Source: Actinomycetota bacterium (lineage in GTDB: Bacteria; Actinomycetota; Thermoleophilia; BMS3ABIN01). Taken from it: a stretch of DNA of 64,000 nt. This document shows positions 3 to 15,937 of this stretch, piece after piece. The notes under the pieces were generated by a model. It was not told where the DNA came from, ran no database searches, and was given only the letters and a program-made list of their open reading frames with translations. The stretch is from contig JACRMB010000004.1 in assembly GCA_016235065.1 (NCBI GenBank), forward strand, positions 3,629 through 67,628, read 5' to 3'. Positions within the stretch are counted from its first letter, which is position 1, and the number at the start of each line of letters is the position of its first letter. The position numbers were made by a program, and so were the translations under genes.

Positions 3-3000
3 TACACGACTGGTGTCCCGCTTTCGGTGCGTACCGGAGTCACTGTCAAGAACCTGACTGTATCCCAGTTCAACTACGGGATCTATCTGCTTTCGTCGAA
101 CTCGACCACACTCACCGGCAATACCGTTTCCAACAACGCCTTTGGGGTTTACGAGGTATTCTCGAACAACAGCCAGGTATTCAATAACAACTTCATCAGC
201 AACGGCATCCAGGCTTATGTGACCGGCGGCAGCGGTAACGTCTTCGATACGCCAAGCGGCGGTAACCACTGGAGCAATTACAGCACGCCAGGCCAGGGCT
301 GCGACGACAACAATGGCAACTTCGTCTGCGACGTCCAGTACACATTCACTGGCGGAATCGACCATATGCCCTGGAGAGACGCCGATGGCTGGAAATACAC
401 CCCGCCACCGGACTCGACTCCACCGAACATCACCAGCGTATTGCCAGCCGGGATAATCGAAACGAACTCTACGACGATCAGCATCGACTATAACGATCCG
501 GGAAGCAATATAAATCTGGCATCGATCTCAGTCACGCTTGATGGAGTGGCGCTTTCGGGATGCACTTCAAACCAGTCCAATACCAGTTGCCTGGTGACCG
601 GCGTGGCGCTGGGAGCCCATTCGATCGGCGGCACTCTGGAGGATAACCGTGGCAATGTCAGCCTTATAAACGGCGCCTTCAATTTCGTCGATACAACCGC
701 TCCTGCAGTAGGCACGGTTCTACCGGCGGGAACTGTCAATTCGACTTCGACGATGATCACTGCTGGTTATTCAGACGGGAGCGGTTCCGGCATCAATCCT
801 GCAACGGTAAGTGTGACCCTCGACGGTTCGCCGCTAGCTGGTTGTGCGATTGATTCGGGAAGTCTCAGCTGTGCCGTGTCAGGCCTGTCACAGGGTAACC
901 ATACAGCCGTTATCAGCGTAAGCGACGTCGCCGGCAACACCGGTACAGGCACCAGCAACTTCGCAGTGGACAGCCTGCCACCGTCAGTGTCCGCAGTATC
1001 ACCTTCCGGGACGATGACGACAGGGTCAGCGACGATCAGCGCCAGCTATTCTGACAGCCAGAGCCCGATCAACACCGGATCAGTGGTTGTTACGCTTGAT
1101 GGCACCAACCTTTCAGGATGTACGGTATCTGCCACTGGTGTCAGCTGCCAGGTCAGTAATCTGACAGTGGGTGCACATACGATCGGCGGTTCAGTCTCAG
1201 ACACCGCTGGCAACACCGCTCCCATCAGTGGCAGTTTCGTATTCTCCGACACCGTCGCTCCGACAGTAGCCAGTATCCTTCCTAGCGGAAGGATCACAAG
1301 CAATACGGCTACCCTGAGTGCAAGCTACAGCGATGGCACTGGCTCCGGCATCGACACGGGCACCGTTGCCGTGCTGCTGGATGGCAGTCCTGCAAGCGGC
1401 TGTGTTGCGGGTGCGGCGACGGTCAACTGTAACGTCAGCGGCCTGGCCGATGGCAGCCATACGCTTGCGGTCAGTGTCAATGACAGAGCGGGGAACACTG
1501 GCAGCGGAACCGGCTCCTTCACCGTGGACACGACGGGACCGGTTGTTACTCCGACTAAATACATCAGCGCCAGCGCCACCGGCGGCGACTGTCCCAGCAT
1601 CGGTGTCTGGGATGACGCGACCAAGACCTGTTTTCTCACTGGTGACTATTACTTCGCCAACAAGAACGGCATCCAGATCACAGCGAATGGAGTGACGCTT
1701 GATGGCAATGGCCACACGATATCCGGAAGCACGGCCTTCAACAGTGGCGTCTCGTATACGGTCAAGACTGGGGTCACGGTCAAGAACCTGACGGTGAAGT
1801 CGTTCAACTACGGCATCTACCAGGTCGCTTCGAACGGCAATACCATCACCGGCAACACCATCCTGTCTAACAAGAACGGCATATACATGTCGTCTTCGAG
1901 CAATAACACCATCTACGGGAATAGCATCAGCAGCAGTGTGACCCAACAGATAGTGATAGCTGGAGGAGCCGGCAACGTCTTCGATATGGCCGCACCGATA
2001 GGTGGCAACTACTGGAGCAACTTCGACACACCAGCAGAAGGCTGCAACGATCTCAACTTTGACGGTTTCTGCGACCTGCCGCTCTTATTCACAGGCGGCC
2101 AGGACAATCTTCCCAGGGTGAGCCCGCCTAACCAGTGGCTCGATATCACGCCTCCCAACGTGACCAGCGTGACGCCCTCAGGGACGATCAATGTCGATTC
2201 AACCAATATCAATATCAGCTACTTCGACATCGGTTCCGGCGTCGATACCAATACGGTTGTAGTGAGGCTTGATGGGACGACGCTGGCAGGCTGCGCGATA
2301 AGCGCCAGCAGCGCCAGCTGCCCGGTATCCGGGCTCGCCCAGGGCGCCCACACCATCAGCGGCTCGCTCGCTGACACTTCAGGCAACAGCGGTCTTATAA
2401 GCGGCAGTTTCATGGTGGAGATACTCACCGACGTCACACCGCCGGCAATAAGCAGCGTCCAGCCTTCAGGCACTATAACGACTTCAACAACTAACGTCAG
2501 CGCCAACTATACTGATTCCGGTTCAGGAATAAACAGCGCAACAGTTGCTGTTTATCTGGATGGAAGCCTGCGCGGCGGCTGCTCGGTGACCGCCAGCAGC
2601 GTCAACTGTCCCGTATCGGGTCTGGCTGACGGCGCCCACGGCATCAGCGTCAGCGTTTCTGATAACGCCGGCAACACCGGCACGGCAACTGGCTCGTTCA
2701 CAGTCTCCACCGTAGCGCCTGATACGACTCCGCCATCGGTGACCAGCGTATTGCCTTCGGGAATACAGACATCGACGAGCGCGACCATCACAGCCTATCT
2801 GAGCGACGCGGGCTCGGGAGTCAATCCCAGTTCCGTCGTCGCCAGGCTCGACGGAGTCGCCATGACCGGCTGCACCGCGACAGCCAGCTCGGTGAGCTGT
2901 CCGAAGACCGGCATCGGCCAGGGTGCTCATGCCATAAGTGTGACCGCTTCGGATAACGCCGGCAACAGCGGCACCGGCACTGGTTCATTCACGGTCGACT

Positions 3001-6000
3001 CGCTAGCGCCTTCGGTCACCGCCCTGTCGCCGACAGGCGCGCTGGCTTCACCCACTACGACCATATCCGCAAGTCTCTCAGACTCGGGTACCGGTATTAA
3101 TTCAGCAACCGCCCAAGTCTATGTCGAAGGCGGCACCGTCGGAACCTGCAACCGGACGGCCACGTCCGTCAGCTGCCAGGTATCCGGGATGGTCGACGGT
3201 ATCCACAACTACACGGTCACGGTCTCGGATATGGCTGGAAATACTGGAAGCGCTTCAGCCAGTCTGAATATCGATACCGTGGCTCCCGCGGTCTCCAATA
3301 TCCAGCCCTCGGGCACCATAACGACCTCGAGCGCGACCATAAGCGCCTACTATAGCGATACCGGCTCCGGGCTCAACATCTCGACCGCGGTAGTAACGCT
3401 CGACGGCACAGCGCTGACTGGCTGTACCCGTACTTTCTCCGGAGTCAGTTGCCCAGCCACGGGGCTCACGGACGGTATCCATAATATAAGCGTCAGTGTC
3501 CAGGACAATATCACCAACATGGGCACGGGCACCGGTTCGTTCACGGTAACGCTGCCTCAGGCTGACACGACAGCGCCTACTGTTACCAACGTGCAGCCAG
3601 GCGGCACTATTGCGACAGGTACAGCCACAATCAGTGCTTACTACAGCGATTCCGGATCGGGCATCAATAGTGCCACTGCAGCAGTGACTCTCGACGGGAC
3701 CCCGATTACTGGTTGCGTCGCATCTGCCAGCGCGGTCAGCTGCGATGCCATCGGCCTCTCCGAGGGCGCGCACAATATCACAGTCTCCGTCGCCGACAAT
3801 GCCGGGAACACTGGCACTGGCAGCGGCAGCTTCGTGGTCGACAGCGTGATACCGGTGGTAAGCAATGTGATGCCCAACCAGGCCACTAACTCCACGAGCG
3901 CTACGGTCAGCGCCTACTTCAACGACGGTTCCGGCACCGGCATCGACCCCGCTTCGGTGAGAGTCTATCTGGACGACGTACTGATGGCTGGTTGCGCGGT
4001 AAGCACTTCCGACGTCAGCTGCGCTGTCAGCGGTCTCACTGATGGATATCACTCCATCAGGGTGGATGTTCTGGACAATGCCGGCAACAGCGGCCACGGA
4101 ACTGACTCATTCCTGGTAGATACGACTATCCCGGTCATAAGCGACATCCAGCCGAGCGGCACTATCAGTACATCCGCCGCCACAGTAAGCGCGTATCTGA
4201 GCGACTCATGGAGTGACGTAAACGATACGAGCGTAGTTGTAATGCTCGATTCTGTCGCGATAACAGGATGTACGGCCACGAATACTTCCGTCAGCTGCCC
4301 GGTCACCGGCCTGGTTGACGGTTACCATACAATCGACATCTCCGTAGCTGATAACACCGGCAATACCGGTACAGGCACCGGAAGCTTCACGGTGGACACC
4401 ACAGTGCCGGACACGACGCCACCAGTGATCAATAATGTGATGCCGTCTGGCACGATTACGACGACAGGCGCCAACGTCAGCGCTTACCTCAGCGACACTG
4501 GCAGCGGCATCAACACCGCCTCGGTGAGCGTCCAGGTAGACTCCGTAGCCCTCACCGGATGCACGGTATCGGCCTCCAGCGTAAGCTGCGCCGCCACAGG
4601 CCTGGCCGAAGGCGCGCACAACATCAGCGTCACCGCCGCCGACAACGCCGGCAACTCAAGCACCAGCACCGGCAGCTTCACGGTAGACTCCATGAGCCCG
4701 ACCGTAAGCGGCCTGGCTCCGACAGGTCTCGTCAACTTGGCCGACCAGACAATAACCGCCAGCTACTCCGACTCGGGCACCGGCATTGACAGCTCCACCG
4801 CCCAGGTCTATATGGACTCCGGCGTGCTCAGCGGCTGCACAGCAACCGCAACCTCGATCAGCTGCCCGGCTGCAGGACTAGCCGAGGGAGCCCACAGCTA
4901 CACAGTGAGCGTCAGGGACACGGCCGGCAATACCGGCTCGGCTTCGGCCAGCTTCACGGTGGACTCGATCCGCCCGACGGCAGGCAATTTCGCTCCCCAG
5001 GGCTATCTGACCACGACCAGCGCCACGATCACTGCATATATCAGCGATAGCGGCAGTGGAATCGACACAGCGGCTGTCTGGGCTGCGGTCGACGGGGTCC
5101 AGCTCAGCGGCTGTACCGTAACCACATCATCAATATCCTGTCCGGCCACCGGGCTTGCGGAAGGCCATCACATCGTCAGCGTCCGCGTGCAGGATATGGC
5201 CAACAACGGCGACATATACTTCTGGGGTATAGATGTTGACTCCCTGGCGCCGTCCGTGACCGGCCTTTCACCTTATGGGTCGCTCGCTTCACCGATAACA
5301 CGGATATCAGCCAGCTTAAGTGACTCCGGTTCGGGAATAGACAGCGCTACCGCCCAGGTCTATGTAGAAGGCGGTACGGTCTCGAACTGCAGCGCGAGTG
5401 CCACTTCCATCAGTTGTGATGTAGCCGGCATGGCTGACGGCGTCCATTACTACACGGTCAGCGTCAGCGACCTGGCCGGCAACACCGGCACAGCCTCAGC
5501 CAGCCTGCATGTTGACACTGTGGCGCCGACAGTCAGCAATATCCAGCCCAGCGGTACTATCACAACCGATAACGCGACTATCAGCGCCTACTACAGTGAC
5601 GCCGGCGTCGGGCTCAACATATCGACCGCCGTGGTCACCCTGGACGGAACCGCGCTGACCGGCTGCACCCGGACTTTCACCGGAGTCAGCTGCCCGGCCA
5701 CCGGACTTGCCGATGGCGTGCATAACATCACTGTCAGCGTCCTTGATAACATCACCAACGTGGGCACCGGCACCGGCTCGTTCACCGTCGCCATTCCTCA
5801 GGCAGACACGACGGCGCCTTCGGTGACCAATGTCCAGCCAACGGGCACGGTAACGACGGGCACGGCTACGATCAGCGCTGATTACAGCGACGCCGGCAGC
5901 GGCATCAACGCTGCCACAGCCAGGGTATACCTGGACGGAACAGCGCTGACAGGCTGCACGGCTACCGCGACATCGGTTAGCTGTCCAGCATCGGGCCTGA

Positions 6001-7088
6001 CTGAGGCCGTTCATAATATCAGCGTCTCAATCGCTGACAACGCCGGCAACACCGGCACCGGCACCGGCTCGTTCACGGTGAATCTGCCTGACACGACGCC
6101 GCCTTCGGTGACGAACATCCTGCCGAGCGGCACCATAACGACCAGTGCGGCAACTGTCTACGCTTACTACAGCGATACTGACAGCGGCATCAACTCCGCC
6201 ACCGCAAAGGTCTACCTGGACGGCACGGCGTTAACCGGCTGTACAGCGACAGCAACCGGCGTCAGCTGCCCGGCAACGGGTCTCGCCAACGGCGTCCATA
6301 ACATCAGCGTCAGAGTCGCCGACAACGCCGGCAACACCGGCACAGGCACCGGTTCCTTCACGGTCAGCCTGCCGTCATGTACGACCGATTACACCGACGC
6401 CAGCGGCGCGTCCATCTCGGTCTACAGCGATTCGTCATATACGACCAAGGTCTGCCAGCAGACCCAGCTGACTCCAAACACGAACTACTACGTGCAGCTG
6501 ACACATCCGACGATGAACCTGTCGTCGGAAGGCACGAACAGGAACCGAATGAGGATGTACAACCTTATGGGAACCCAGGTGAACTACGGTGACGGCACGA
6601 ACGAGAAGACGTTCACCCAGCAGTCAGGCGGAGCACCGTACCGGTACCGCACGACCTTCCGGACTCCGTCCACGGCCGACATCTACACGCTGGAGCCCAG
6701 CCTGCGGAACAACGCCCAGACCAAGCAGGTCACGATATATGGATGGATGACCAAGGTCGGCAATTCAGCCAGCTATGTGGCTACCTATTCTGACGCCGCC
6801 TATTCGGTCTACACTGATACGTTCGCTCCTGGAGCCACGGTCTACGTGCAGATGTACAGCGCCAGCTTCAGCGACGGCACTCCGACCACGTCGGCTACTT
6901 CGATCAACAGCTACGACTTTGCCGCGGCCTCTACCGTGCTGTCGGAGAGCTCTGTGAGCAGGATCGCCTCAAAGACGTACAGGACCGCGTTCACGATGCC
7001 GAGCGGCACCGGAGACCGCGGATTCCGGCTCAGCATATCCAGCGGAAGTACACTGGCAAGACCTGAATTCCTGCTGAACAGGCAGTAA
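3..7088 (+). CDS. giant secreted surface protein, 5' partial at window edge: two parallel beta-helix modules each followed by arrays of ~95-aa Ig-like domains (about 20 copies), plus a distinct ~230-aa C-terminal domain
   Basis: ORF 27..7088 is open to the window start and its first residues (TGVTVKNLTVSQFNYGIY) repeat an internal segment (KTGVTVKNLTVKSFNYGIY, ~aa 570), so the true start lies upstream. Beta-helix signature NNxFxxNGIxxY/GNxIxxN; Ig-like unit PSGTIxTxxATISAxYSDxGSGIxxATxxVxLDGxxLxGCxxxxxxVSCxxxGLxxGxHxIxVxVxDxAGNxGxGxGSFxVD with two conserved Cys. Confidence 0.8.
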   Translation, partial: YTTGVPLSVRTGVTVKNLTVSQFNYGIYLLSSNSTTLTGNTVSNNAFGVYEVFSNNSQVFNNNFISNGIQAYVTGGSGNVFDTPSGGNHWSNYSTPGQGCDDNNGNFVCDVQYTFTGGIDHMPWRDADGWKYTPPPDSTPPNITSVLPAGIIETNSTTISIDYNDPGSNINLASISVTLDGVALSGCTSNQSNTSCLVTGVALGAHSIGGTLEDNRGNVSLINGAFNFVDTTAPAVGTVLPAGTVNSTSTMITAGYSDGSGSGINPATVSVTLDGSPLAGCAIDSGSLSCAVSGLSQGNHTAVISVSDVAGNTGTGTSNFAVDSLPPSVSAVSPSGTMTTGSATISASYSDSQSPINTGSVVVTLDGTNLSGCTVSATGVSCQVSNLTVGAHTIGGSVSDTAGNTAPISGSFVFSDTVAPTVASILPSGRITSNTATLSASYSDGTGSGIDTGTVAVLLDGSPASGCVAGAATVNCNVSGLADGSHTLAVSVNDRAGNTGSGTGSFTVDTTGPVVTPTKYISASATGGDCPSIGVWDDATKTCFLTGDYYFANKNGIQITANGVTLDGNGHTISGSTAFNSGVSYTVKTGVTVKNLTVKSFNYGIYQVASNGNTITGNTILSNKNGIYMSSSSNNTIYGNSISSSVTQQIVIAGGAGNVFDMAAPIGGNYWSNFDTPAEGCNDLNFDGFCDLPLLFTGGQDNLPRVSPPNQWLDITPPNVTSVTPSGTINVDSTNINISYFDIGSGVDTNTVVVRLDGTTLAGCAISASSASCPVSGLAQGAHTISGSLADTSGNSGLISGSFMVEILTDVTPPAISSVQPSGTITTSTTNVSANYTDSGSGINSATVAVYLDGSLRGGCSVTASSVNCPVSGLADGAHGISVSVSDNAGNTGTATGSFTVSTVAPDTTPPSVTSVLPSGIQTSTSATITAYLSDAGSGVNPSSVVARLDGVAMTGCTATASSVSCPKTGIGQGAHAISVTASDNAGNSGTGTGSFTVDSLAPSVTALSPTGALASPTTTISASLSDSGTGINSATAQVYVEGGTVGTCNRTATSVSCQVSGMVDGIHNYTVTVSDMAGNTGSASASLNIDTVAPAVSNIQPSGTITTSSATISAYYSDTGSGLNISTAVVTLDGTALTGCTRTFSGVSCPATGLTDGIHNISVSVQDNITNMGTGTGSFTVTLPQADTTAPTVTNVQPGGTIATGTATISAYYSDSGSGINSATAAVTLDGTPITGCVASASAVSCDAIGLSEGAHNITVSVADNAGNTGTGSGSFVVDSVIPVVSNVMPNQATNSTSATVSAYFNDGSGTGIDPASVRVYLDDVLMAGCAVSTSDVSCAVSGLTDGYHSIRVDVLDNAGNSGHGTDSFLVDTTIPVISDIQPSGTISTSAATVSAYLSDSWSDVNDTSVVVMLDSVAITGCTATNTSVSCPVTGLVDGYHTIDISVADNTGNTGTGTGSFTVDTTVPDTTPPVINNVMPSGTITTTGANVSAYLSDTGSGINTASVSVQVDSVALTGCTVSASSVSCAATGLAEGAHNISVTAADNAGNSSTSTGSFTVDSMSPTVSGLAPTGLVNLADQTITASYSDSGTGIDSSTAQVYMDSGVLSGCTATATSISCPAAGLAEGAHSYTVSVRDTAGNTGSASASFTVDSIRPTAGNFAPQGYLTTTSATITAYISDSGSGIDTAAVWAAVDGVQLSGCTVTTSSISCPATGLAEGHHIVSVRVQDMANNGDIYFWGIDVDSLAPSVTGLSPYGSLASPITRISASLSDSGSGIDSATAQVYVEGGTVSNCSASATSISCDVAGMADGVHYYTVSVSDLAGNTGTASASLHVDTVAPTVSNIQPSGTITTDNATISAYYSDAGVGLNISTAVVTLDGTALTGCTRTFTGVSCPATGLADGVHNITVSVLDNITNVGTGTGSFTVAIPQADTTAPSVTNVQPTGTVTTGTATISADYSDAGSGINAATARVYLDGTALTGCTATATSVSCPASGLTEAVHNISVSIADNAGNTGTGTGSFTVNLPDTTPPSVTNILPSGTITTSAATVYAYYSDTDSGINSATAKVYLDGTALTGCTATATGVSCPATGLANGVHNISVRVADNAGNTGTGTGSFTVSLPSCTTDYTDASGASISVYSDSSYTTKVCQQTQLTPNTNYYVQLTHPTMNLSSEGTNRNRMRMYNLMGTQVNYGDGTNEKTFTQQSGGAPYRYRTTFRTPSTADIYTLEPSLRNNAQTKQVTIYGWMTKVGNSASYVATYSDAAYSVYTDTFAPGATVYVQMYSASFSDGTPTTSATSINSYDFAAASTVLSESSVSRIASKTYRTAFTMPSGTGDRGFRLSISSGSTLARPEFLLNRQ
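2995..3700. repeat. intragenic segmental duplication, copy A (~0.7 kb, two Ig-like domains)
   Basis: Encoded segment SLAPSVTALSPTGALASP...GSFTVTLPQADTTAPTVTNVQPGG is near-identical in protein and closely similar in DNA to copy B. Confidence 0.6.
5236..5945. repeat. intragenic segmental duplication, copy B
   Basis: Encoded segment SLAPSVTGLSPYGSLASP...GSFTVAIPQADTTAPSVTNVQPTG; long runs of identical nucleotides with copy A. Confidence 0.6.
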
Positions 7089-7152
7089 CAGGCAGGAAGT
7101 CGGGCATTTCCCGACCAGCGAGAATCTGGCCGGAGAACAGGATGAATCACGA

Positions 7153-7188
7153 GGCCCCGCCGTCAGGCGGGGCCTCTTTCTTGCTGTT
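7153..7188 (+). terminator. rho-independent terminator after the giant gene
   Basis: GGCCCCGCC-gtca-GGCGGGGCC perfect 9-bp stem followed by TCTTTCTTGCTGTT, 65 nt after the stop codon. Confidence 0.55.
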
Positions 7189-7257
7189 CTGAAACCATTT
7201 GTTCGTTTCCGCGTCTAACCGGGTAACACTAAACAGTCAAGCCATCGGAGGAAGACC

Positions 7258-7674
7258 TTGGAGACATCCGCAGCCATAAGTTTCGAAGTCCATACGGGCC
7301 AGCCGTTCGACCAGGCCATCGAAAGCCTGACGAAGGCACTCAAGGCAGAAAGCTTCGGCATCCTCACCCGCATCGACGTCCACACTACTCTCAAGGAAAA
7401 GCTGGACAAGGATTTTCGCAAGTACGCCATCATCGGAGCCTGTAACCCGCCGCTCGCGCACCGCGCCCTCGAGCACCAGGCGGAAGTAGGTTTGATGCTT
7501 CCCTGCAATATCACTGTCGAGGAAGACCCCAAAGGCGGTTCCATAGTCCGCATAGGCGATCCCGGAGCCATGTTGAAGGGTTTTGGAATGGATCAGGACC
7601 CGGTGCTCGCCGAGGTTGGAGCCGAAGCCCGCAAGCGGCTTGAGCGGGTGGCCAGAGCACTGGAAGCTACATAA
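7258..7674 (+). CDS. DUF302 domain protein
   Basis: TTG start preceded by GGAGGAAG; motifs ILTRIDVHTTLKEKL, YAIIGACNPPLAHRAL and LMLPCNITVEED typical of DUF302. Confidence 0.65.
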   Translation: METSAAISFEVHTGQPFDQAIESLTKALKAESFGILTRIDVHTTLKEKLDKDFRKYAIIGACNPPLAHRALEHQAEVGLMLPCNITVEEDPKGGSIVRIGDPGAMLKGFGMDQDPVLAEVGAEARKRLERVARALEAT

Positions 7675-8809
7675 GCTCCCGCACAAAGAAATCGACTATC
7701 ATCGCGTTGATCTCCTGGCGTGACGGGTCGATCTCTCCACCCTGGGGAACAAAAGCGTGTCCTGCGTTCTTCACCATCACCAGCGTGGCCGGCACTCCGG
7801 CAGCCTTCAGCAGGTCATAGAGCCCCTGGGACTGGTCCGGCGGCACGAGCATGTCTGAGTCGCCCTGCAGTATCAGGAACGGTGGATCGTCCGCGGTGAC
7901 GTAGGTGACCGGGCTAGCGATCTTCAGGATCTCAGAGCCGCTGTCGCTGGTGCCGAACACCCTTGCCCCCAGTGCCTTGCCGATGGCGCCACCCTCGAAT
8001 TCCCGGGTCAGATCCGAGGGGCCGAACATGTCCACGACCGCCTGTACCCGGCTTGATTCATCCTGGTTCCCGCACGATCCCTCGAGACCGTCGTCGTCAT
8101 CCATGACTCCCAGCAGCGATACCAGATGGCCGCCCGCACTGCCGCCCCAGGCGCCGATCCTATCGGGGTCAAGGGCATACTTGCCAGCATTAGCCCGAAG
8201 ATAGCGCAACGCGCATTTAACGTCCTCGATCTGTGCCGGGAACCGGTATTCGGGCGCGAGTCGATAATTGACCGACACCACCAGGAAGCCGGCCTCCTGC
8301 AGGCTGGGGATGGTAGTGGTGCCGGCTCCGTCCTGCTTGTCGCCTTTGGTCCAGCCGCCTCCGTGGACATACATCACCACCGGCACCGGCCCGGCTGCCT
8401 TTAACGGATAATAGATATCCATCTTCAGGTCGACGCCGTTAGCCCTGCCGTAGGTCACGTCACGTTCCACGGTGCCAAGCTTTGCGGGGTCCAGCGGTAC
8501 AAAAGTGCTCGCCGCATCGCCGTCAGATCCGGTGGTCGAAGCGGTCTCTTTGCCAGTCTCAGAATTGCTGCCCGGGCTATCAGTGCCGGCGTCCGCGGTA
8601 GCGCCGGATCCATCGCCGGACAGAACGCCTGCGGAGCTTCTATCTGCGTCAGGATCTCCGCAGCCTGTAACCAGCATTATCAGTACCAGCATCATGAGCA
8701 CCAGCAGCACGACTGCAAGGGAGGTAAGGGCCGTGAATAACCTTCCCGCACGGAGGCCACGCAAAAGTCTCCGCCGGATGATACCGCCCGATGTCAGACC
8801 GGCACTCAC
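7667..8809 (-). CDS. alpha/beta-hydrolase fold esterase/lipase, lipoprotein
   Basis: MYVHGGGWTKGDK (HGGG oxyanion motif) and GGSAGGHL (GxSxG nucleophile elbow); N-terminal hydrophobic segment ending in lipobox LVTGC. Confidence 0.7.
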   Translation of the reverse strand: MSAGLTSGGIIRRRLLRGLRAGRLFTALTSLAVVLLVLMMLVLIMLVTGCGDPDADRSSAGVLSGDGSGATADAGTDSPGSNSETGKETASTTGSDGDAASTFVPLDPAKLGTVERDVTYGRANGVDLKMDIYYPLKAAGPVPVVMYVHGGGWTKGDKQDGAGTTTIPSLQEAGFLVVSVNYRLAPEYRFPAQIEDVKCALRYLRANAGKYALDPDRIGAWGGSAGGHLVSLLGVMDDDDGLEGSCGNQDESSRVQAVVDMFGPSDLTREFEGGAIGKALGARVFGTSDSGSEILKIASPVTYVTADDPPFLILQGDSDMLVPPDQSQGLYDLLKAAGVPATLVMVKNAGHAFVPQGGEIDPSRQEINAMIVDFFVRELM

Positions 8810-10143
8810 TGGCCACCCGCCATCGTCACGATATCCTCGGAAGTGACTACCCGCAGGTTAGCGCTGGCCCAGGCGACCATCTCCTCGTATGCCGCCCAGA
8901 TGGCTTCCTGCTCTTCGGCGGAGCGCACGGTGGAGCTCTCCGGTCTGGTCAGATCGAAGGGAGGCGACAGCGGCCGCGACTTGTCGCCACCGGTGAAGTA
9001 GTAAGCAGTCCAGCCTTCCGGCCCGCTGCGGGCGAAGTTGTTCTCATGGATAAGCGAGGTGATGATCGGCGGGCGGCCGACCGCCGCCGTGTTCCAGCCT
9101 GCGAGACGCTCCTGCAGGTAAGCGGTGGGATCATATTCTCCGGCATTGGGAGTCGTCAGCATGTTCCACCAGAAAGGTTCTTCACCTTTTTTGGACTGAG
9201 CACTTCCCGTGGCATCCCAGCGGGTGATGCTGAAGTCGCTTGGCCGCACCAGCAGGCCGTTCACCCAGACGAACGGCTCTTCCAGGTCCGTCCCTTCCTC
9301 ATGGTAAAGGAGGGTCATGTGTGCGCCGAGGTTGGCATACAGCTGCTGGCCGGCAGCCTTGATCTCGGGGCTCTTGCTGGGAACCGGCGCACAGACAGGG
9401 TCACGCCCGAAAGTGTCAGCAACATATGAATAGCCACCGGGCTGATCGCGCAGGAGGCCGCCAGTCGTCATATCGAGGGCGAAAGTCTCATAGTCTTGGA
9501 GCGTCGCCGCCAGCGCCGTTCCATCCAGGCCTTGCAGGCTCTGGTCGAACCCGGCATAGAGGGGGTGGGGAGGACGCACGTGATAACTGATCGTCATCTC
9601 GCTGTTCTTCAGTCGCTCGATCACATCGGGGCGTTCCCGGCTGTAAGCCTGCACGATCGGCGCAGTCAGATAGAAGTCGCCGCGAACGCCGTATTTCTCA
9701 TAGATGCCGATCAGCCTCAGGATCGTGTCAGCGCTCTCATCCACATGCACGGTGTCATGGACGTTGATCACGAATGTGATATAGCCGGGAGCGGTCTTAT
9801 CGAAGGTCGTGTAGGTGACGCCGCCACCAGCTCCGCCGTCAGTAACGCCATCCATCCCGGCCGATTCGGTGGCGCTGCCGGTCTCATCGGAAACCGCATC
9901 GCTGGTTCCGTCCGGTCCCGCGGCAACATCCGTGCTCGGACCGCCATCCGCCTCTCTGTCGCAGGCGAGAGCTGACAGCAGCAGCATCGCGCTTACCAGA
10001 GACACGAGCAGGAAAAACGTGATGCGCAGCCCGGCGCAAGTACCGCCAACCGTGCTGATACCGCCGGCCGTCACGCTGCTATCGCCACACAGCCGGACTC
10101 TGCGTATTCTGCTCTTCCCGCTCTCTCTGCTCACTCTGATCAC
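8806..10143 (-). CDS. secreted lipoprotein, putative polysaccharide-deacetylase-like hydrolase (paralog 1)
   Basis: GTG start; lipobox LSALAC; TFVINVHDTVHVDES...ISYHVRPPHP His-rich motifs; paralogous to the downstream gene. Family assignment is tentative. Confidence 0.45.
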   Translation of the reverse strand: MIRVSRESGKSRIRRVRLCGDSSVTAGGISTVGGTCAGLRITFFLLVSLVSAMLLLSALACDREADGGPSTDVAAGPDGTSDAVSDETGSATESAGMDGVTDGGAGGGVTYTTFDKTAPGYITFVINVHDTVHVDESADTILRLIGIYEKYGVRGDFYLTAPIVQAYSRERPDVIERLKNSEMTISYHVRPPHPLYAGFDQSLQGLDGTALAATLQDYETFALDMTTGGLLRDQPGGYSYVADTFGRDPVCAPVPSKSPEIKAAGQQLYANLGAHMTLLYHEEGTDLEEPFVWVNGLLVRPSDFSITRWDATGSAQSKKGEEPFWWNMLTTPNAGEYDPTAYLQERLAGWNTAAVGRPPIITSLIHENNFARSGPEGWTAYYFTGGDKSRPLSPPFDLTRPESSTVRSAEEQEAIWAAYEEMVAWASANLRVVTSEDIVTMAGGQ

Positions 10144-12549: not shown

Positions 12550-12594
12550 AACTCAGGGACACCATAGCTTTATTAGCAGGGATAAAAGGACAGC

Positions 12595-13395
12595 CTAAAC
12601 CGGCCGCATCGTCCCGAAGAACATCTGCCACGCCAGCGCCGACTTGGCCACCAGGCTGAGGATGATATACACCCTCTCACCGTAAAGGTAGTCTTTCCAC
12701 GGCCCGATCTGCCGGTACTGCAGCCACTGGTTCACGGCGAAGATGTTGAAGAAGATGAACAGCGAAACCATGATGCCGTAGACGAAGTCAGGTACTGATG
12801 TATCCGGGTACTGGTTGGACCCGATCGTGTAGAGCGCTATCACCACCCAGGGGATGATCCCCGCGAAGCAGCCGAAATAGAACGCGGTCCAGCTTGTCTT
12901 TTCCGTAGTCTGGTTATGCAGCTCCATCATGTAGCCAAAGAAGATCATGCAGGCGTTGATGCAGAAGATGAGGATCAGGCTCGAAAGGTCGTAGACGCCC
13001 ACCAACATGGCGATCAGCACTATCATGATCGACGAGCTCAGCGAATACTCCCACCAGCGCGCCTTGTTGATGTGCTGCTTGAGGTTTGCCACATACCAGT
13101 TGAATCCGAACGAAGCCAGGATGAAGTGCGCCATCGCCGACAGCAGCAGGAAGATGGCAACCATGGGTGCGATGCGCAGGGTATAAGGGTCCTGAAGATT
13201 CTGGACCAGTCTGCCGGAGGAGACATCGAATTTCAGGTAGATAGTCGACACCGGCAGTGAGAAGCTGGTGCTCAGCCACAGCATCAGCACACCCTGGCCC
13301 AGGTGCAGGCAGCCCATGATGAAGTTGAAGCGGCGAAGGCCGCCGTAGGTTATTTTACTGGCGGGCGCGGCGTCTGTAGCTAAGGCGATATTCAT
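12595..13395 (-). CDS. heliorhodopsin (7-TM retinal protein)
   Basis: Strong match to heliorhodopsin 48C12 as recalled: WWEYSLSSSIMIVLIA (TM3 with Glu counterion), FGCFAGIIPWV, VPDFVYGIMVSLFIFFN, GERVYIILSLVAKSALAWQMF (TM7 with retinal-binding Lys); GGGAGG RBS 5 nt upstream of ATG. Confidence 0.85.
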   Translation of the reverse strand: MNIALATDAAPASKITYGGLRRFNFIMGCLHLGQGVLMLWLSTSFSLPVSTIYLKFDVSSGRLVQNLQDPYTLRIAPMVAIFLLLSAMAHFILASFGFNWYVANLKQHINKARWWEYSLSSSIMIVLIAMLVGVYDLSSLILIFCINACMIFFGYMMELHNQTTEKTSWTAFYFGCFAGIIPWVVIALYTIGSNQYPDTSVPDFVYGIMVSLFIFFNIFAVNQWLQYRQIGPWKDYLYGERVYIILSLVAKSALAWQMFFGTMRPV

Positions 13396-13428
13396 TTAGG
13401 CCTCCCGGTTCCGGGGACGGGTACGATC

Positions 13429-13458
13429 ATTACAACGTGACCTATGCAGCACGCTCAA
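13429..13458 (-). promoter_or_regulatory. candidate sigma70-type promoter for the heliorhodopsin gene
   Basis: On the minus strand TTGAGC, 18 nt, TGTAAT, about 35 nt upstream of the heliorhodopsin start; no intrinsic terminator seen between the polymerase gene and the heliorhodopsin gene. Confidence 0.25.
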
Positions 13459-13552
13459 TCGATTACTACTGCCTTGGATACCGTTTCCCTTTTATCGTCG
13501 GGCTAATCTCTTGCTTCGGCGCCGGGAGTCGGTCGTCACAGGTTACTTCTGC

Positions 13553-14869
13553 TCACTTCACCTCACCCATGAACATGGGGATATTGATCCGCTGCCGCTC
13601 CGTCTCGCCCTTGAACAGCTCCTCCCGCCGCGCCGGCACGTCGCCGCGGTCGCCCAGGTGCTGCGCGAATTTATTAGCAGTGAAGCTCGAGCCCAAAAAC
13701 AGCGTGTGTTTGCCGTATTTCACCCGCACGCCGTCCACCGCCTCATAGACTCGCGCCAGCCGTTCGATGCGCGCCGTCACGCCGAAGAGGTCCGGCTGAG
13801 TGATGACGTCCTCGGTGAGCTTCAACAGAACCACGCCGGTCGACCGGTACAGCTTCGTCGGCTTGAACAGCCGCTGGAACACCGGCTCCAGCGCCGCCAT
13901 GATCTCATGGGGGAAGGCGGTGGGCCGCGAGAACTTCACCTTGGCGCCGACGCCGTGGAAATCCTGGGTCTTGAGGAAGCAGACCGCCTCCCGCGCCGCC
14001 AGCTTGTAGCGCCGCGCCTTCATGGTGGCGTTCTCCACGTTCTTGGATAGTTGGGCGAAGACGAACTCCGGGTCGCTGGACGGCGGCGTGAAGGTCTTCA
14101 CTTTCTGGATGGTGTAATAGCTCTCTTTTTCCTCGGTGTCGAGCCCCATGACCATGCGCCCGTTCAGCTCCTGCCAGGTCTCGTAGAATGGCTTGCTGAA
14201 GTTCGCTTTCACCCAGTCCTCGTCGCGCCGGGCGAAGTCGAGCGCCGTGGTGATGCCGAACTTGGCGAGATAGGCGGTGGTCTGCGGCCCGATGCCCCAG
14301 ACCTTCTCCACCGGCATGCCGCGCAGGAACTCGTGGATGTCGCGCCCGGGGATCACCGTCAGCCCCGAAGGCTTCTGCCATTTGGAGGCGATCTTGGCGA
14401 TGGTCTTGTTGGGCGCGAGCCCGGTGGAGAAGGTGAAACCGAAGGCCTCGTCCAGCTCCTCCTTCATCGCCCTGGCGATGGCCCGGTAGCCCATGCGCAG
14501 CGGCCGCTGCATGCCGGTGATATCGGCGAAGCACTCGTCGATGCCGTATTCCTCCACATCGGGCGTGTAGCGCCGCACTATGGCGAAGAAGCGTTTCGAC
14601 AGCAGGCTGTAAGTCTCGTAATCGGAGGGAAGGAAGACCGCGTCGGGGCAGAGCTTACGCACCTCGGAGAGCCGCATGGCTCGCACGACGCCACGGGCCT
14701 TGGCCTCGTAGCTCATGGAGGCGACGATGTTGCGCTCCTTGCCGGTGATCACAGGGATACCCTGGAGCTTGGGGTTCCGTGATTGCTCACACGACGCAAA
14801 AAAAGCGTCGGCGTCGATGTGGATGACCGCCCGGGGGAAGGAGCGGATGGAGAGGGGGTTGTCACCCAT
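13553..14869 (-). CDS. Y-family (UmuC/DinB-like) translesion DNA polymerase
   Basis: VIHIDADAFFASCEQSRNP (catalytic Asp motif), IDECFADITG, NIVASMSYEAKARGV; start 1 nt after the lexA stop, so translationally coupled. Confidence 0.85.
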   Translation of the reverse strand: MGDNPLSIRSFPRAVIHIDADAFFASCEQSRNPKLQGIPVITGKERNIVASMSYEAKARGVVRAMRLSEVRKLCPDAVFLPSDYETYSLLSKRFFAIVRRYTPDVEEYGIDECFADITGMQRPLRMGYRAIARAMKEELDEAFGFTFSTGLAPNKTIAKIASKWQKPSGLTVIPGRDIHEFLRGMPVEKVWGIGPQTTAYLAKFGITTALDFARRDEDWVKANFSKPFYETWQELNGRMVMGLDTEEKESYYTIQKVKTFTPPSSDPEFVFAQLSKNVENATMKARRYKLAAREAVCFLKTQDFHGVGAKVKFSRPTAFPHEIMAALEPVFQRLFKPTKLYRSTGVVLLKLTEDVITQPDLFGVTARIERLARVYEAVDGVRVKYGKHTLFLGSSFTANKFAQHLGDRGDVPARREELFKGETERQRINIPMFMGEVK

Positions 14870-14870
14870 C

Positions 14871-15443
14871 TCAATACTTCCGAATGACCGCTCGCACGAT
14901 CGCCGCGACCCGCAGCTCGTTCTCCGGCGTGATCGGCCCGAACCTGCTATTGGCCGCTTCCAGCCAGACTTTGCCGCCGCGTTTGCGGTAATACTTCATG
15001 GTCCACTCGCCGTCGACCTCGGCGATGATGATGTCGCCGTCCTTCTCGGTGACGCCCCGTTCCACCAGCACCATGTCGCCGGGCATGATGCCGGCGTCGA
15101 CCATCGACTCGCCCTGCACCTTGAGCAGGTAGGTCTGCTCCGGGCGCTTGATGAGGAACTCCTCCAGGCTCATGGTGTCCAGCAGCTCCTCCTCGGCGGG
15201 AGAGGGCCAGCCGGCCTCGACCGTGCCGAGCTGGGGCACGGCGTTGAAGCGCCGCCCCGGCAGCAGTTTGCCGGTCTCGTCGCGCTCCACGAAGCCCTGT
15301 TCCACCAGCCGGTTCACCAGTTTGTAGGTGGTTCCCTTTGAGCGCAGGCCAGCCGCCCGGGCGATCTCGGCATGGCTGGGCATGCGCCGGTTGGCCCGGT
15401 AGAAGGCGATGATCTTATCCAGATGTTTTGGTGTCTTTTTCAT
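14871..15443 (-). CDS. lexA: LexA repressor (S24 peptidase)
   Basis: N-terminal wHTH (HAEIARAAGLRSKGTTYKLVNRLVEQGFVER), cleavage-site region VEAG, catalytic Ser in VQGESMVDAGI and Lys in WTMKYY. Confidence 0.9.
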   Translation of the reverse strand: MKKTPKHLDKIIAFYRANRRMPSHAEIARAAGLRSKGTTYKLVNRLVEQGFVERDETGKLLPGRRFNAVPQLGTVEAGWPSPAEEELLDTMSLEEFLIKRPEQTYLLKVQGESMVDAGIMPGDMVLVERGVTEKDGDIIIAEVDGEWTMKYYRKRGGKVWLEAANSRFGPITPENELRVAAIVRAVIRKY

Positions 15444-15467
15444 GATGAGAGTGGGGTGACACAGTAT

Positions 15468-15487
15468 AGGCGTACGAAAGTACGCCT
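15468..15487. promoter_or_regulatory. perfect palindrome AGGCGTAC-GAAA-GTACGCCT, candidate LexA operator
   Basis: 8-bp perfect inverted arms with a 4-bp spacer, 25 to 45 bp upstream of the lexA start in the divergent intergenic region; the GTAC-N4-GTAC core resembles non-E. coli LexA boxes. Confidence 0.4.
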
Positions 15488-15538
15488 GTCAACTTTCCGG
15501 AAGGAGGGCTCTAAACGCGGGATGGTGGGGAGGAAGTC

Positions 15539-15937
15539 GTGAAAAAAGAAAGAAATGCCGAGGGACGGAAGATCATGTGGAATTTATTGGTTATGAGAAG
15601 TTTTGCCCGTGCCGCCGCAGCAGATGACCGGCCTGTTCTCATTTCCGTTGTTTGCATATTAGGCTTTATGAGCGGCTTCACTTCGCTACTGGCTCCACTG
15701 TTGCTGGTAAACCCTGTTGCCTGGCTGACGGCCTATATGCTTGTCTCAGGCATTTTCAGCCTGGCTTGCATGATAGCGCTGTGGCGCATGAGGCTTTGGG
15801 CTGTTCCGGCTTTCATTCTGTTATTCATCATCAATCAGATCGTCTGGCTGTCAGCTGGTATCTGGTCCGGCCGTGATATTCCTTTTTCACTCATGGTTAT
15901 CGCAGTCGGAATTTATTATTTCCGGGAGCTGGAATAA
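15539..15937 (+). CDS. small integral membrane protein (3-4 TM), hypothetical
   Basis: GTG start after GGGAGGAAG; hydrophobic helices; divergent from lexA. Confidence 0.45.
   Translation: MKKERNAEGRKIMWNLLVMRSFARAAAADDRPVLISVVCILGFMSGFTSLLAPLLLVNPVAWLTAYMLVSGIFSLACMIALWRMRLWAVPAFILLFIINQIVWLSAGIWSGRDIPFSLMVIAVGIYYFRELE

Follow-up and report, generated by a model that had tools for sequence, protein, structure and literature searches.

In Gram-positive bacteria the LexA (DinR) box is the Cheo box, CGAAC-N4-GTTCG, and the LexA motif of Geobacter, GGTT-N2-C-N4-G-N3-ACC, is unrelated to the operator described here. For cyanobacteria the consensus of the LexA box has been given as RGTACNNNDGTWCB or AGTACWNWTGTACT (Mazon et al. 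2004; PMC3091678), and this box has been noted to be both an inverted and a direct repeat (PMC3091678). A full-text literature search for a GTAC-type LexA motif found only this cyanobacterial study (PMC3091678). With regard to gene order, PMC6511836, citing Jara et al. 2003, describes autoregulated lexA–(imuB-C)–polY operons in Geobacter sulfurreducens, which are damage-inducible and form one transcription unit. In Acinetobacter, UmuDAb is a repressor by virtue of an N-terminal extension (PMC4807011). Here we examined a stretch of 64 kb (the window) in which a lexA gene is headed by a GTAC-containing inverted repeat and followed by a gene for a Y-family polymerase.

The lexA locus and its promoter

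The features of the locus were located on the window as follows.

12595..13395, minus strand: heliorhodopsin (PF18761, 343 bits)
13553..14869, minus strand: Y-family (DinB-like) translesion DNA polymerase, 438 aa (IMS, IMS_HHH and IMS_C domains)
14871..15443, minus strand: lexA, 190 aa (TIGR00498 match, Peptidase_S24, alignment to E. coli LexA)
15463..15468, minus strand: −10 hexamer TATACT (promoter scan), its first base being the last base of the palindrome
15468..15487, minus strand: candidate LexA operator, AGGCGTAC-TTTC-GTACGCCT on the lexA strand (sequence, arms, clade conservation and helix co-variation)
15487..15492, minus strand: −35 hexamer TTGACA (promoter scan; kept in all clade loci), its last base being the first base of the palindrome

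The 190-aa protein was found to pass the NCBIfam lexA equivalog TIGR00498 (124.9 bits against a cut-off of 110.95) and to carry a Peptidase_S24 domain (91 bits). Its N-terminus is a winged helix-turn-helix, which scored below the cut-off with the Pfam LexA_DNA_bind model (PF01726, 19.7 against 23.7 bits) and above the cut-off with HTH_IclR (29.9 bits), and the helix region of which aligned without gaps to residues 26-55 of the E. coli protein. When aligned to E. coli LexA by BLASTP, (i) the cleavage bond A77-G78 corresponded to A84-G85; (ii) the catalytic residues S113 and K150 corresponded to S119 and K156, the Ser/Lys dyad being kept; and (iii) the recognition helix S35-K36-G37-T38-T39 corresponded to S39-P40-N41-A42-A43. 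Among relatives of solved structure, UmuD/UmuD' (75.7 bits) ranked marginally above LexA (72 bits). An identity as UmuD, the autoproteolytic subunit of Pol V, was nonetheless rejected, as the UmuD model PRK10276 stayed below its cut-off (104.8 against 110) and an N-terminal helix-turn-helix is present.

The polymerase start codon lies 1 nt past the lexA stop codon, and the polymerase is thus taken as the second gene of the operon. With ~215 bits for Pol IV models and 150 bits for UmuC, all below the curated cut-offs, the 438-aa polymerase is nearer to Pol IV than to UmuC. The heliorhodopsin gene follows on the same strand after a gap of 157 nt (13396..13552), within which no promoter-like or terminator-like site was found; a terminator-like hairpin (12590..12607, minus strand) first appears past the heliorhodopsin gene. 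The heliorhodopsin gene is a possible third member of the lexA transcription unit, such that a light-sensing rhodopsin may be read through from a DNA-damage-controlled promoter. The same order of lexA, polymerase and heliorhodopsin was also seen at three other loci (L001, L002, and L307). The ImuB-C gene is absent between lexA and the polymerase, and no other genes of the SOS type (recA, uvrA, and dnaE2 included) were found among the large ORFs of the window.

The inverted repeat at 15468..15487 reads AGGCGTACGAAAGTACGCCT, that is AGGCGTAC-GAAA-GTACGCCT, and the repeat search returned arms of 8 nt each (15468-15475 and 15480-15487) that are 100% complementary and 4 nt apart. The sequence-only reading had called the site a perfect 20-bp palindrome just upstream of lexA. 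The perfect 8-bp arms were confirmed, as was the position, with the repeat lying 25-44 nt 5′ of the lexA ATG (ORF 14871..15443, minus strand); strict palindromy over 20 bp was not, because the GAAA centre is not self-complementary, and the site is better described as an inverted repeat of two 8-nt arms around a spacer of 4 nt. Since GTAC is its own reverse complement, as is CGTACG here, the arms can be read as a direct as well as an inverted repeat. Across the 64-kb window, exact GTAC-N4-GTAC occurred once, and with up to one mismatch there were 10 matches where 9.4 were expected, GTAC as a tetranucleotide being under-represented (131 occurrences, 237 expected). Nor are inverted repeats with perfect 8-nt arms and a spacer of up to 6 nt rare: the window has 16, whereas first-order Markov simulations gave a mean of ~8, an abundance that would suit a chance origin. 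The palindrome by itself is not statistically improbable, and its significance comes from its promoter position and its conservation, not from rarity.

A promoter scan of the lexA strand identified TTGACA-N18-TATACT, with 11 of 12 consensus matches, as the sole promoter-like site in the intergenic region upstream of lexA. The palindrome coincides with the −35/−10 spacer and has one base in common with each hexamer; thus, a dyad-symmetric site overlaps the lexA promoter, as expected of an autoregulatory operator.

Conservation in close relatives and searches for further sites

Relatives were gathered by a scan of one genome per species, which provided 80 loci encoding relatives of the LexA protein; lexA and the polymerase gene have stayed together in 67 of these. 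A close set of 14 loci, with 77-94% LexA identity, was drawn from uncultured MAGs labelled Thermoleophilia, Actinomycetes, or Actinomycetota, together with bacterium BMS3Abin01. The operator was present upstream of lexA in all 14, with the consensus TTGACA-GGCGTACG-NN-CGTACGCC-TATAMT and few deviations, among them one arm changed to GTCC (L007) and an altered outer flank (L009). When the loci were aligned on the repeat, the sole conserved block was TTGACAGGCGTACG..CGTACGCCTATAMTGT, while the two central bases and all sequence 5′ of the −35 hexamer varied freely. In most relatives the symmetry extends to CGTACG-NN-CGTACG, with a "loop" of 2 nt, and the operator of the window has CGTACT where the clade consensus has CGTACG, a difference at a single inner position. 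The conservation follows lexA, because the 132-aa ORF that diverges from it in the window had no counterpart in the 14 clade loci. The −10 hexamer was TATAMT in 12 of the 13 aligned clade loci; TAGACT was seen in L002 and TAAACT in L003.

Two further observations concern the leader of lexA. Directly 5′ of the ATG, the window (15444..15462, minus strand) has a C/T-rich block, CCACTCTCAYC, and no Shine-Dalgarno sequence; this block is kept in most clade loci (L001, L003-L005, L007-L009, L011, and L013). At L010, L012, and L042, the lexA ATG is found just 9-10 nt past the −10 hexamer, and this short distance suggests short-leader or leaderless lexA mRNAs at these three loci.

A symmetrised 16-nt matrix was built from the 14 clade sites (maximum 28.0 bits), and the window operator scored 24.0 bits with it. 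In the 64-kb window no position except 15470 exceeded 8 bits, and in the window plus the 14 clade loci, a total of 146 kb of which ~82 kb lie outside the window and which holds no recA, uvr, or dnaE2, no second site above 8 bits was found besides the lexA promoters. The degenerate half-match GTACGATCATTAC before the heliorhodopsin gene, which the earlier reading had seen but had not counted as a site, does exist, at 13421..13433 and thus 2 nt from where it had been placed; leaving it uncounted was right, as it does not score as a site with the clade matrix. In 20 kb of sequence surrounding the lexA of another clade member (L308), again without recA, uvr, or dnaE2, only the lexA operator was detected. 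It was seen twice there because the assembly is mirrored: positions 324..9805 are symmetric around ~5065, with the genes of 324..5005 repeated in inverted order at 5124..9805, lexA operator included, a pattern that suggests an assembly artefact.

Viral and metagenome contigs were also scanned. The viral scan with GCGTACGNNCGTACGC gave 106 matches, mostly low-complexity GCGTACGCGCGTACGC. One viral contig (L111, IMGVR_UViG_3300049268_000002) displayed the same promoter-plus-palindrome layout at 3612..3641, TTGACAtGCGTACGCGCGTACGCTATTAT, upstream of a 61-aa ORF and just past a 1029-aa ORF; the layout may mark a phage promoter linked to a LexA of the GTAC type, or may be coincidental. The metagenome scan with GCGTACGWWCGTACGC gave at least 120 matches; nearly all of the matches listed were chance or GTAC-repeat occurrences in unrelated DNA, and L215 and L299 were the only lexA–polymerase loci among the matches listed.

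Recognition helices and half-sites in distant relatives

Beyond the clade, 42 members of this lexA–polymerase family, at 51-64% identity, were found to have GTGAAC-N4-GTTCAC between the same promoter hexamers. These GAAC-type loci came from Nitrospirota, Patescibacteria, Acidobacteriota, Syntrophorhabdus, Riflebacteria, and others, with the site placed between TTGACA and TATAAT. At this identical promoter position, GTGAAC-N4-GTTCAC reads as a LexA box of the classical Gram-positive type. No second boxes were found within ±3 kb in the GAAC-type loci. For every locus with an identifiable promoter palindrome, the recognition helix was set against the half-site, as listed below.

S(K/R)N(A/S)x with GTGAAC: 42 loci, three with one deviant half-site and two with C/G in the outer flank
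SKS(A/V/P)x with (T/G)AGAAC: 5 loci, one with a TAGTAC half
SKGAV with GAGAAC: 2 loci (L037 and L314)
SKG(T/S)T with GCGTAC: 15 loci, the clade of the window with the window included
SRTAA with GTGTCC: 1 locus
SKGGV (Omnitrophota, ~50% identity) with GCGTAC or GCGGAC: 4 loci

Thus, six helix classes pair with six half-site classes. LexA residue 37 was found to track the base that precedes the half-site G, and residue 38 the base that follows it, with Ala accompanying A and Thr, Ser, or Gly accompanying T or G. These two varying residues align with N41 and A42 of E. coli LexA, which are among the DNA-contacting residues of LexA helix III (PMC3091678).

The Omnitrophota group was reached through the metagenome locus L215, which encodes a LexA of ~50% identity and has 41% G+C. 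It is a large group, and SKGG(V/I) was present in ~110 of 120 homologues among the matches listed. Four of its operators were readable: (i) GCGTAC/GCGTAC; (ii) GCGGAC/GCGTAC; (iii) ACGGAC/ACGTAC; and (iv) a GGAC/GTCC palindrome. The half-sites of L310-L312 (SKGGV) contain GGAC and occupy the same promoter position. A Parcubacteria locus (L018), whose LexA has the helix SRTAARKLA, likewise has GTGTCC-N4-GGACAC at that position.

The GTAC half-site appears to be a derived specificity, reached by a change of the helix from SKNAV to SKG(T/S)T and of the half-site from TGAAC to CGTAC. All 15 SKG(T/S)T loci belong to one clade and therefore represent one evolutionary event, to which the Omnitrophota add one more only. 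On this comparison the switch from TGAAC to CG(T/G)AC happened at least twice, in the window's clade and in the Omnitrophota, each time with a change of the helix. No other observation speaks as strongly for direct reading of the palindrome by the LexA homologue as this repeated pairing. The subfamily as a whole seems to re-tune its specificity repeatedly. The simple rule that Gly37 alone determines GTAC was rejected, since the SKGAV proteins of L037 and L314 use GAGAAC; because Gly37 alone does not predict GTAC, the recognition code is only partly resolved.

Other members of the family were different in appearance. In members of the Saccharibacteria and Paceibacteria type with SKNA or STNA helices (L024-L028, L031, L032, L034-L036, L038, L040, L044, L051, L054, L061, L069, and L074), neither a recognisable palindrome nor a consensus promoter was found within 220 nt upstream of lexA, and their operator, if any, would lie elsewhere or look different. 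On the contig of a further relative (P0074; JGI 3300047160), whose helix is SRHAAYKLA, the lexA–polymerase pair is followed by a SRAP (YedK-type) gene and a PhdYeFM/PIN toxin-antitoxin pair.

Proposed operator function, alternatives and known systems

We consider it very probable that LexA uses the inverted repeat as an operator to repress the operon that encodes it, namely lexA, the Y-family polymerase and possibly the heliorhodopsin. An autoregulatory LexA operator specific to this lineage is what the sequence-only reading had proposed, and the proposal gains support from the placement of the site in the promoter spacer, its standing as the sole conserved block in 14 promoters, its replacement of the GAAC box of relatives, and its co-variation with the recognition helix. 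These features, and the cleavage residues, were directly observed. The idea that the LexA box varies by phylum held only in part: the box is indeed lineage-specific, but what the motif goes with is the subfamily of LexA and the helix used for recognition, not the phylum, because the lexA–Y-polymerase pair spans many phyla. The repeat may also be the SOS box of the whole genome, as the earlier reading had proposed with a view to regulon prediction.

As to mechanism, a LexA dimer would place one winged-helix domain on each CGTAC half-site, with half-site centres 8 bp apart as in the geometry of the Gram-positive GAAC-N4-GTTC box. Because the site fills the −35/−10 spacer, bound LexA would be expected to exclude RNA polymerase (promoter occlusion). 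Upon DNA damage, RecA-stimulated self-cleavage at A77-G78, with S113 and K150 as catalytic residues, would remove the repressor and allow the polymerase to be made. LexA binding, repression, inducibility, and RecA dependence are inferred, as is any role at other SOS genes.

A possible, though on balance unlikely, alternative is that the repeat is a private operator of a lexA–polymerase cassette rather than the SOS box of the whole genome, the protein being a dedicated LexA/UmuD-like regulator of its own polymerase operon in the manner of UmuDAb of Acinetobacter; a separate canonical actinobacterial LexA, acting at GAAC-N4-GTTC, would then control recA, uvrA, and the rest, and the change to GTAC would insulate the cassette. 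This would agree with the occurrence of the lexA–Y-polymerase pair as a unit, at 50-65% identity, across MAGs of the Actinomycetota, Nitrospirota, Patescibacteria, Acidobacteriota, Omnitrophota, and Desulfobacterota type, and with the motif being seen at lexA promoters only in the 146 kb scanned. The affinity to UmuD points the same way, both in the solved relatives and in the near miss of the UmuD model, as does the annotation of an Omnitrophota homologue (P0203) as the Pol V autoproteolytic subunit, and the autoregulated lexA-dinB operons of Geobacter offer a precedent (Jara et al. 2003, as cited in PMC6511836). Against this, the protein passes the LexA equivalog threshold, lexA in this clade sits among housekeeping genes (Sua5, RpiB, SHMT, PrmC, RF-1, ThyX, and L31) with no evident mobile element, and the nearest relatives on plasmids and phages share less than 40% identity with the protein. 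A mobile-element origin was itself rejected, no close plasmid or phage relative having been found.

To a more far-reaching proposal we give little credence: that lexA and the polymerase form an autoregulated unit for mutagenesis, complete in itself, where the intact protein would be the repressor and its RecA-cleaved, UmuD'-like C-terminal fragment an accessory subunit of the polymerase. The re-tuning of helix and operator (TGAAC, AGAAC, CGTAC, CGGAC, and TGTCC) would then serve insulation from, or coupling to, the host SOS repressor, and the heliorhodopsin would perhaps come under DNA-damage control.

That the repeat is instead a chance palindrome, a DNA or RNA hairpin, or the site of a regulator other than LexA, such as a 5′ element belonging to the divergently oriented ORF for a membrane protein of 132 aa (15539..15937), is hardly credible: the region does fold well as single-stranded DNA (−10.7 kcal/mol, z = −4.2) and the plus-strand loop GAAA is a GNRA sequence, but the repeat is kept with lexA in 14 loci and the divergent ORF in none, the 2-nt "loop" of most relatives leaves centres that are not GNRA, the palindrome lies upstream of the predicted lexA transcription start, and the recognition helix of LexA is the one feature with which the half-site co-varies. 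An RNA element was also rejected, with no Rfam match and no terminator-like T-run at the palindrome.

With the repeat read as the operator of the lexA operon, a well-supported consensus, GGCGTACG-NN-CGTACGCC, becomes available for a clade of uncultured, deep-branching Actinomycetota. Prediction of the SOS regulon of an uncultured lineage begins from its LexA motif, and divergent motifs have had to be discovered one at a time. The relatives also provide a natural series in which two helix positions, the equivalents of N41 and A42 of E. coli LexA, change together with two half-site positions while the promoter architecture stays fixed, and this series amounts to a testable LexA specificity code. 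Nothing here alters the current understanding of the SOS response mechanism.

Compared with the Cheo box, the window's operator has the same design, an inverted repeat of two tetranucleotide cores that are 4 nt apart and lie over the lexA promoter for autoregulation, and distant members of its LexA subfamily keep GTGAAC-N4-GTTCAC at the identical promoter position. It differs in that both arms read GTAC instead of GAAC and GTTC, with the 4-nt spacing retained; in its G+C-rich flanks (GGC...GCC); and in the helix of its LexA, SKGTT against SKNAV in the GAAC-binding relatives.

The GTAC-N4-GTAC core is common to the operator and the cyanobacterial box. On the plus strand, GTAC GAAA GTAC G fits the GTAC-NNND-GTWC-B part of RGTACNNNDGTWCB, but GTAC is preceded by C on both strands where the consensus has R (A or G), and the inner flanks are G/C as opposed to A/T-rich. 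The LexA of the window has its nearest relatives in the GAAC-binding LexAs of Nitrospirota, Patescibacteria, and Acidobacteriota and not in cyanobacterial LexA, and for this reason the common GTAC core is most simply read as convergence. The locus thus offers an example of a Cheo-type box that would have drifted to a GTAC core previously tied to cyanobacteria.

With the operons of Geobacter (Jara et al. 2003, as cited in PMC6511836), the locus has in common that lexA is the first gene and that a Y-family polymerase belongs to the operon; it differs in having no ImuB-C gene between the two. With UmuDAb and the umuDC operon of E. coli it has in common a self-cleaving S24 protein encoded directly upstream of a Y-family polymerase, as well as a C-terminal domain as similar to UmuD as to LexA. 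In contrast to these systems, the protein scores above the cut-off of the LexA equivalog but below that of the UmuD model, and its polymerase scores higher with the Pol IV than with the UmuC model; moreover, the operator is a simple palindrome of 16-20 bp, compared with the large, atypical site of UmuDAb. The new part is therefore a sequence variant, GTAC for GAAC, of a well-known DNA-damage switch, the GTAC-N4-GTAC core itself being already known.
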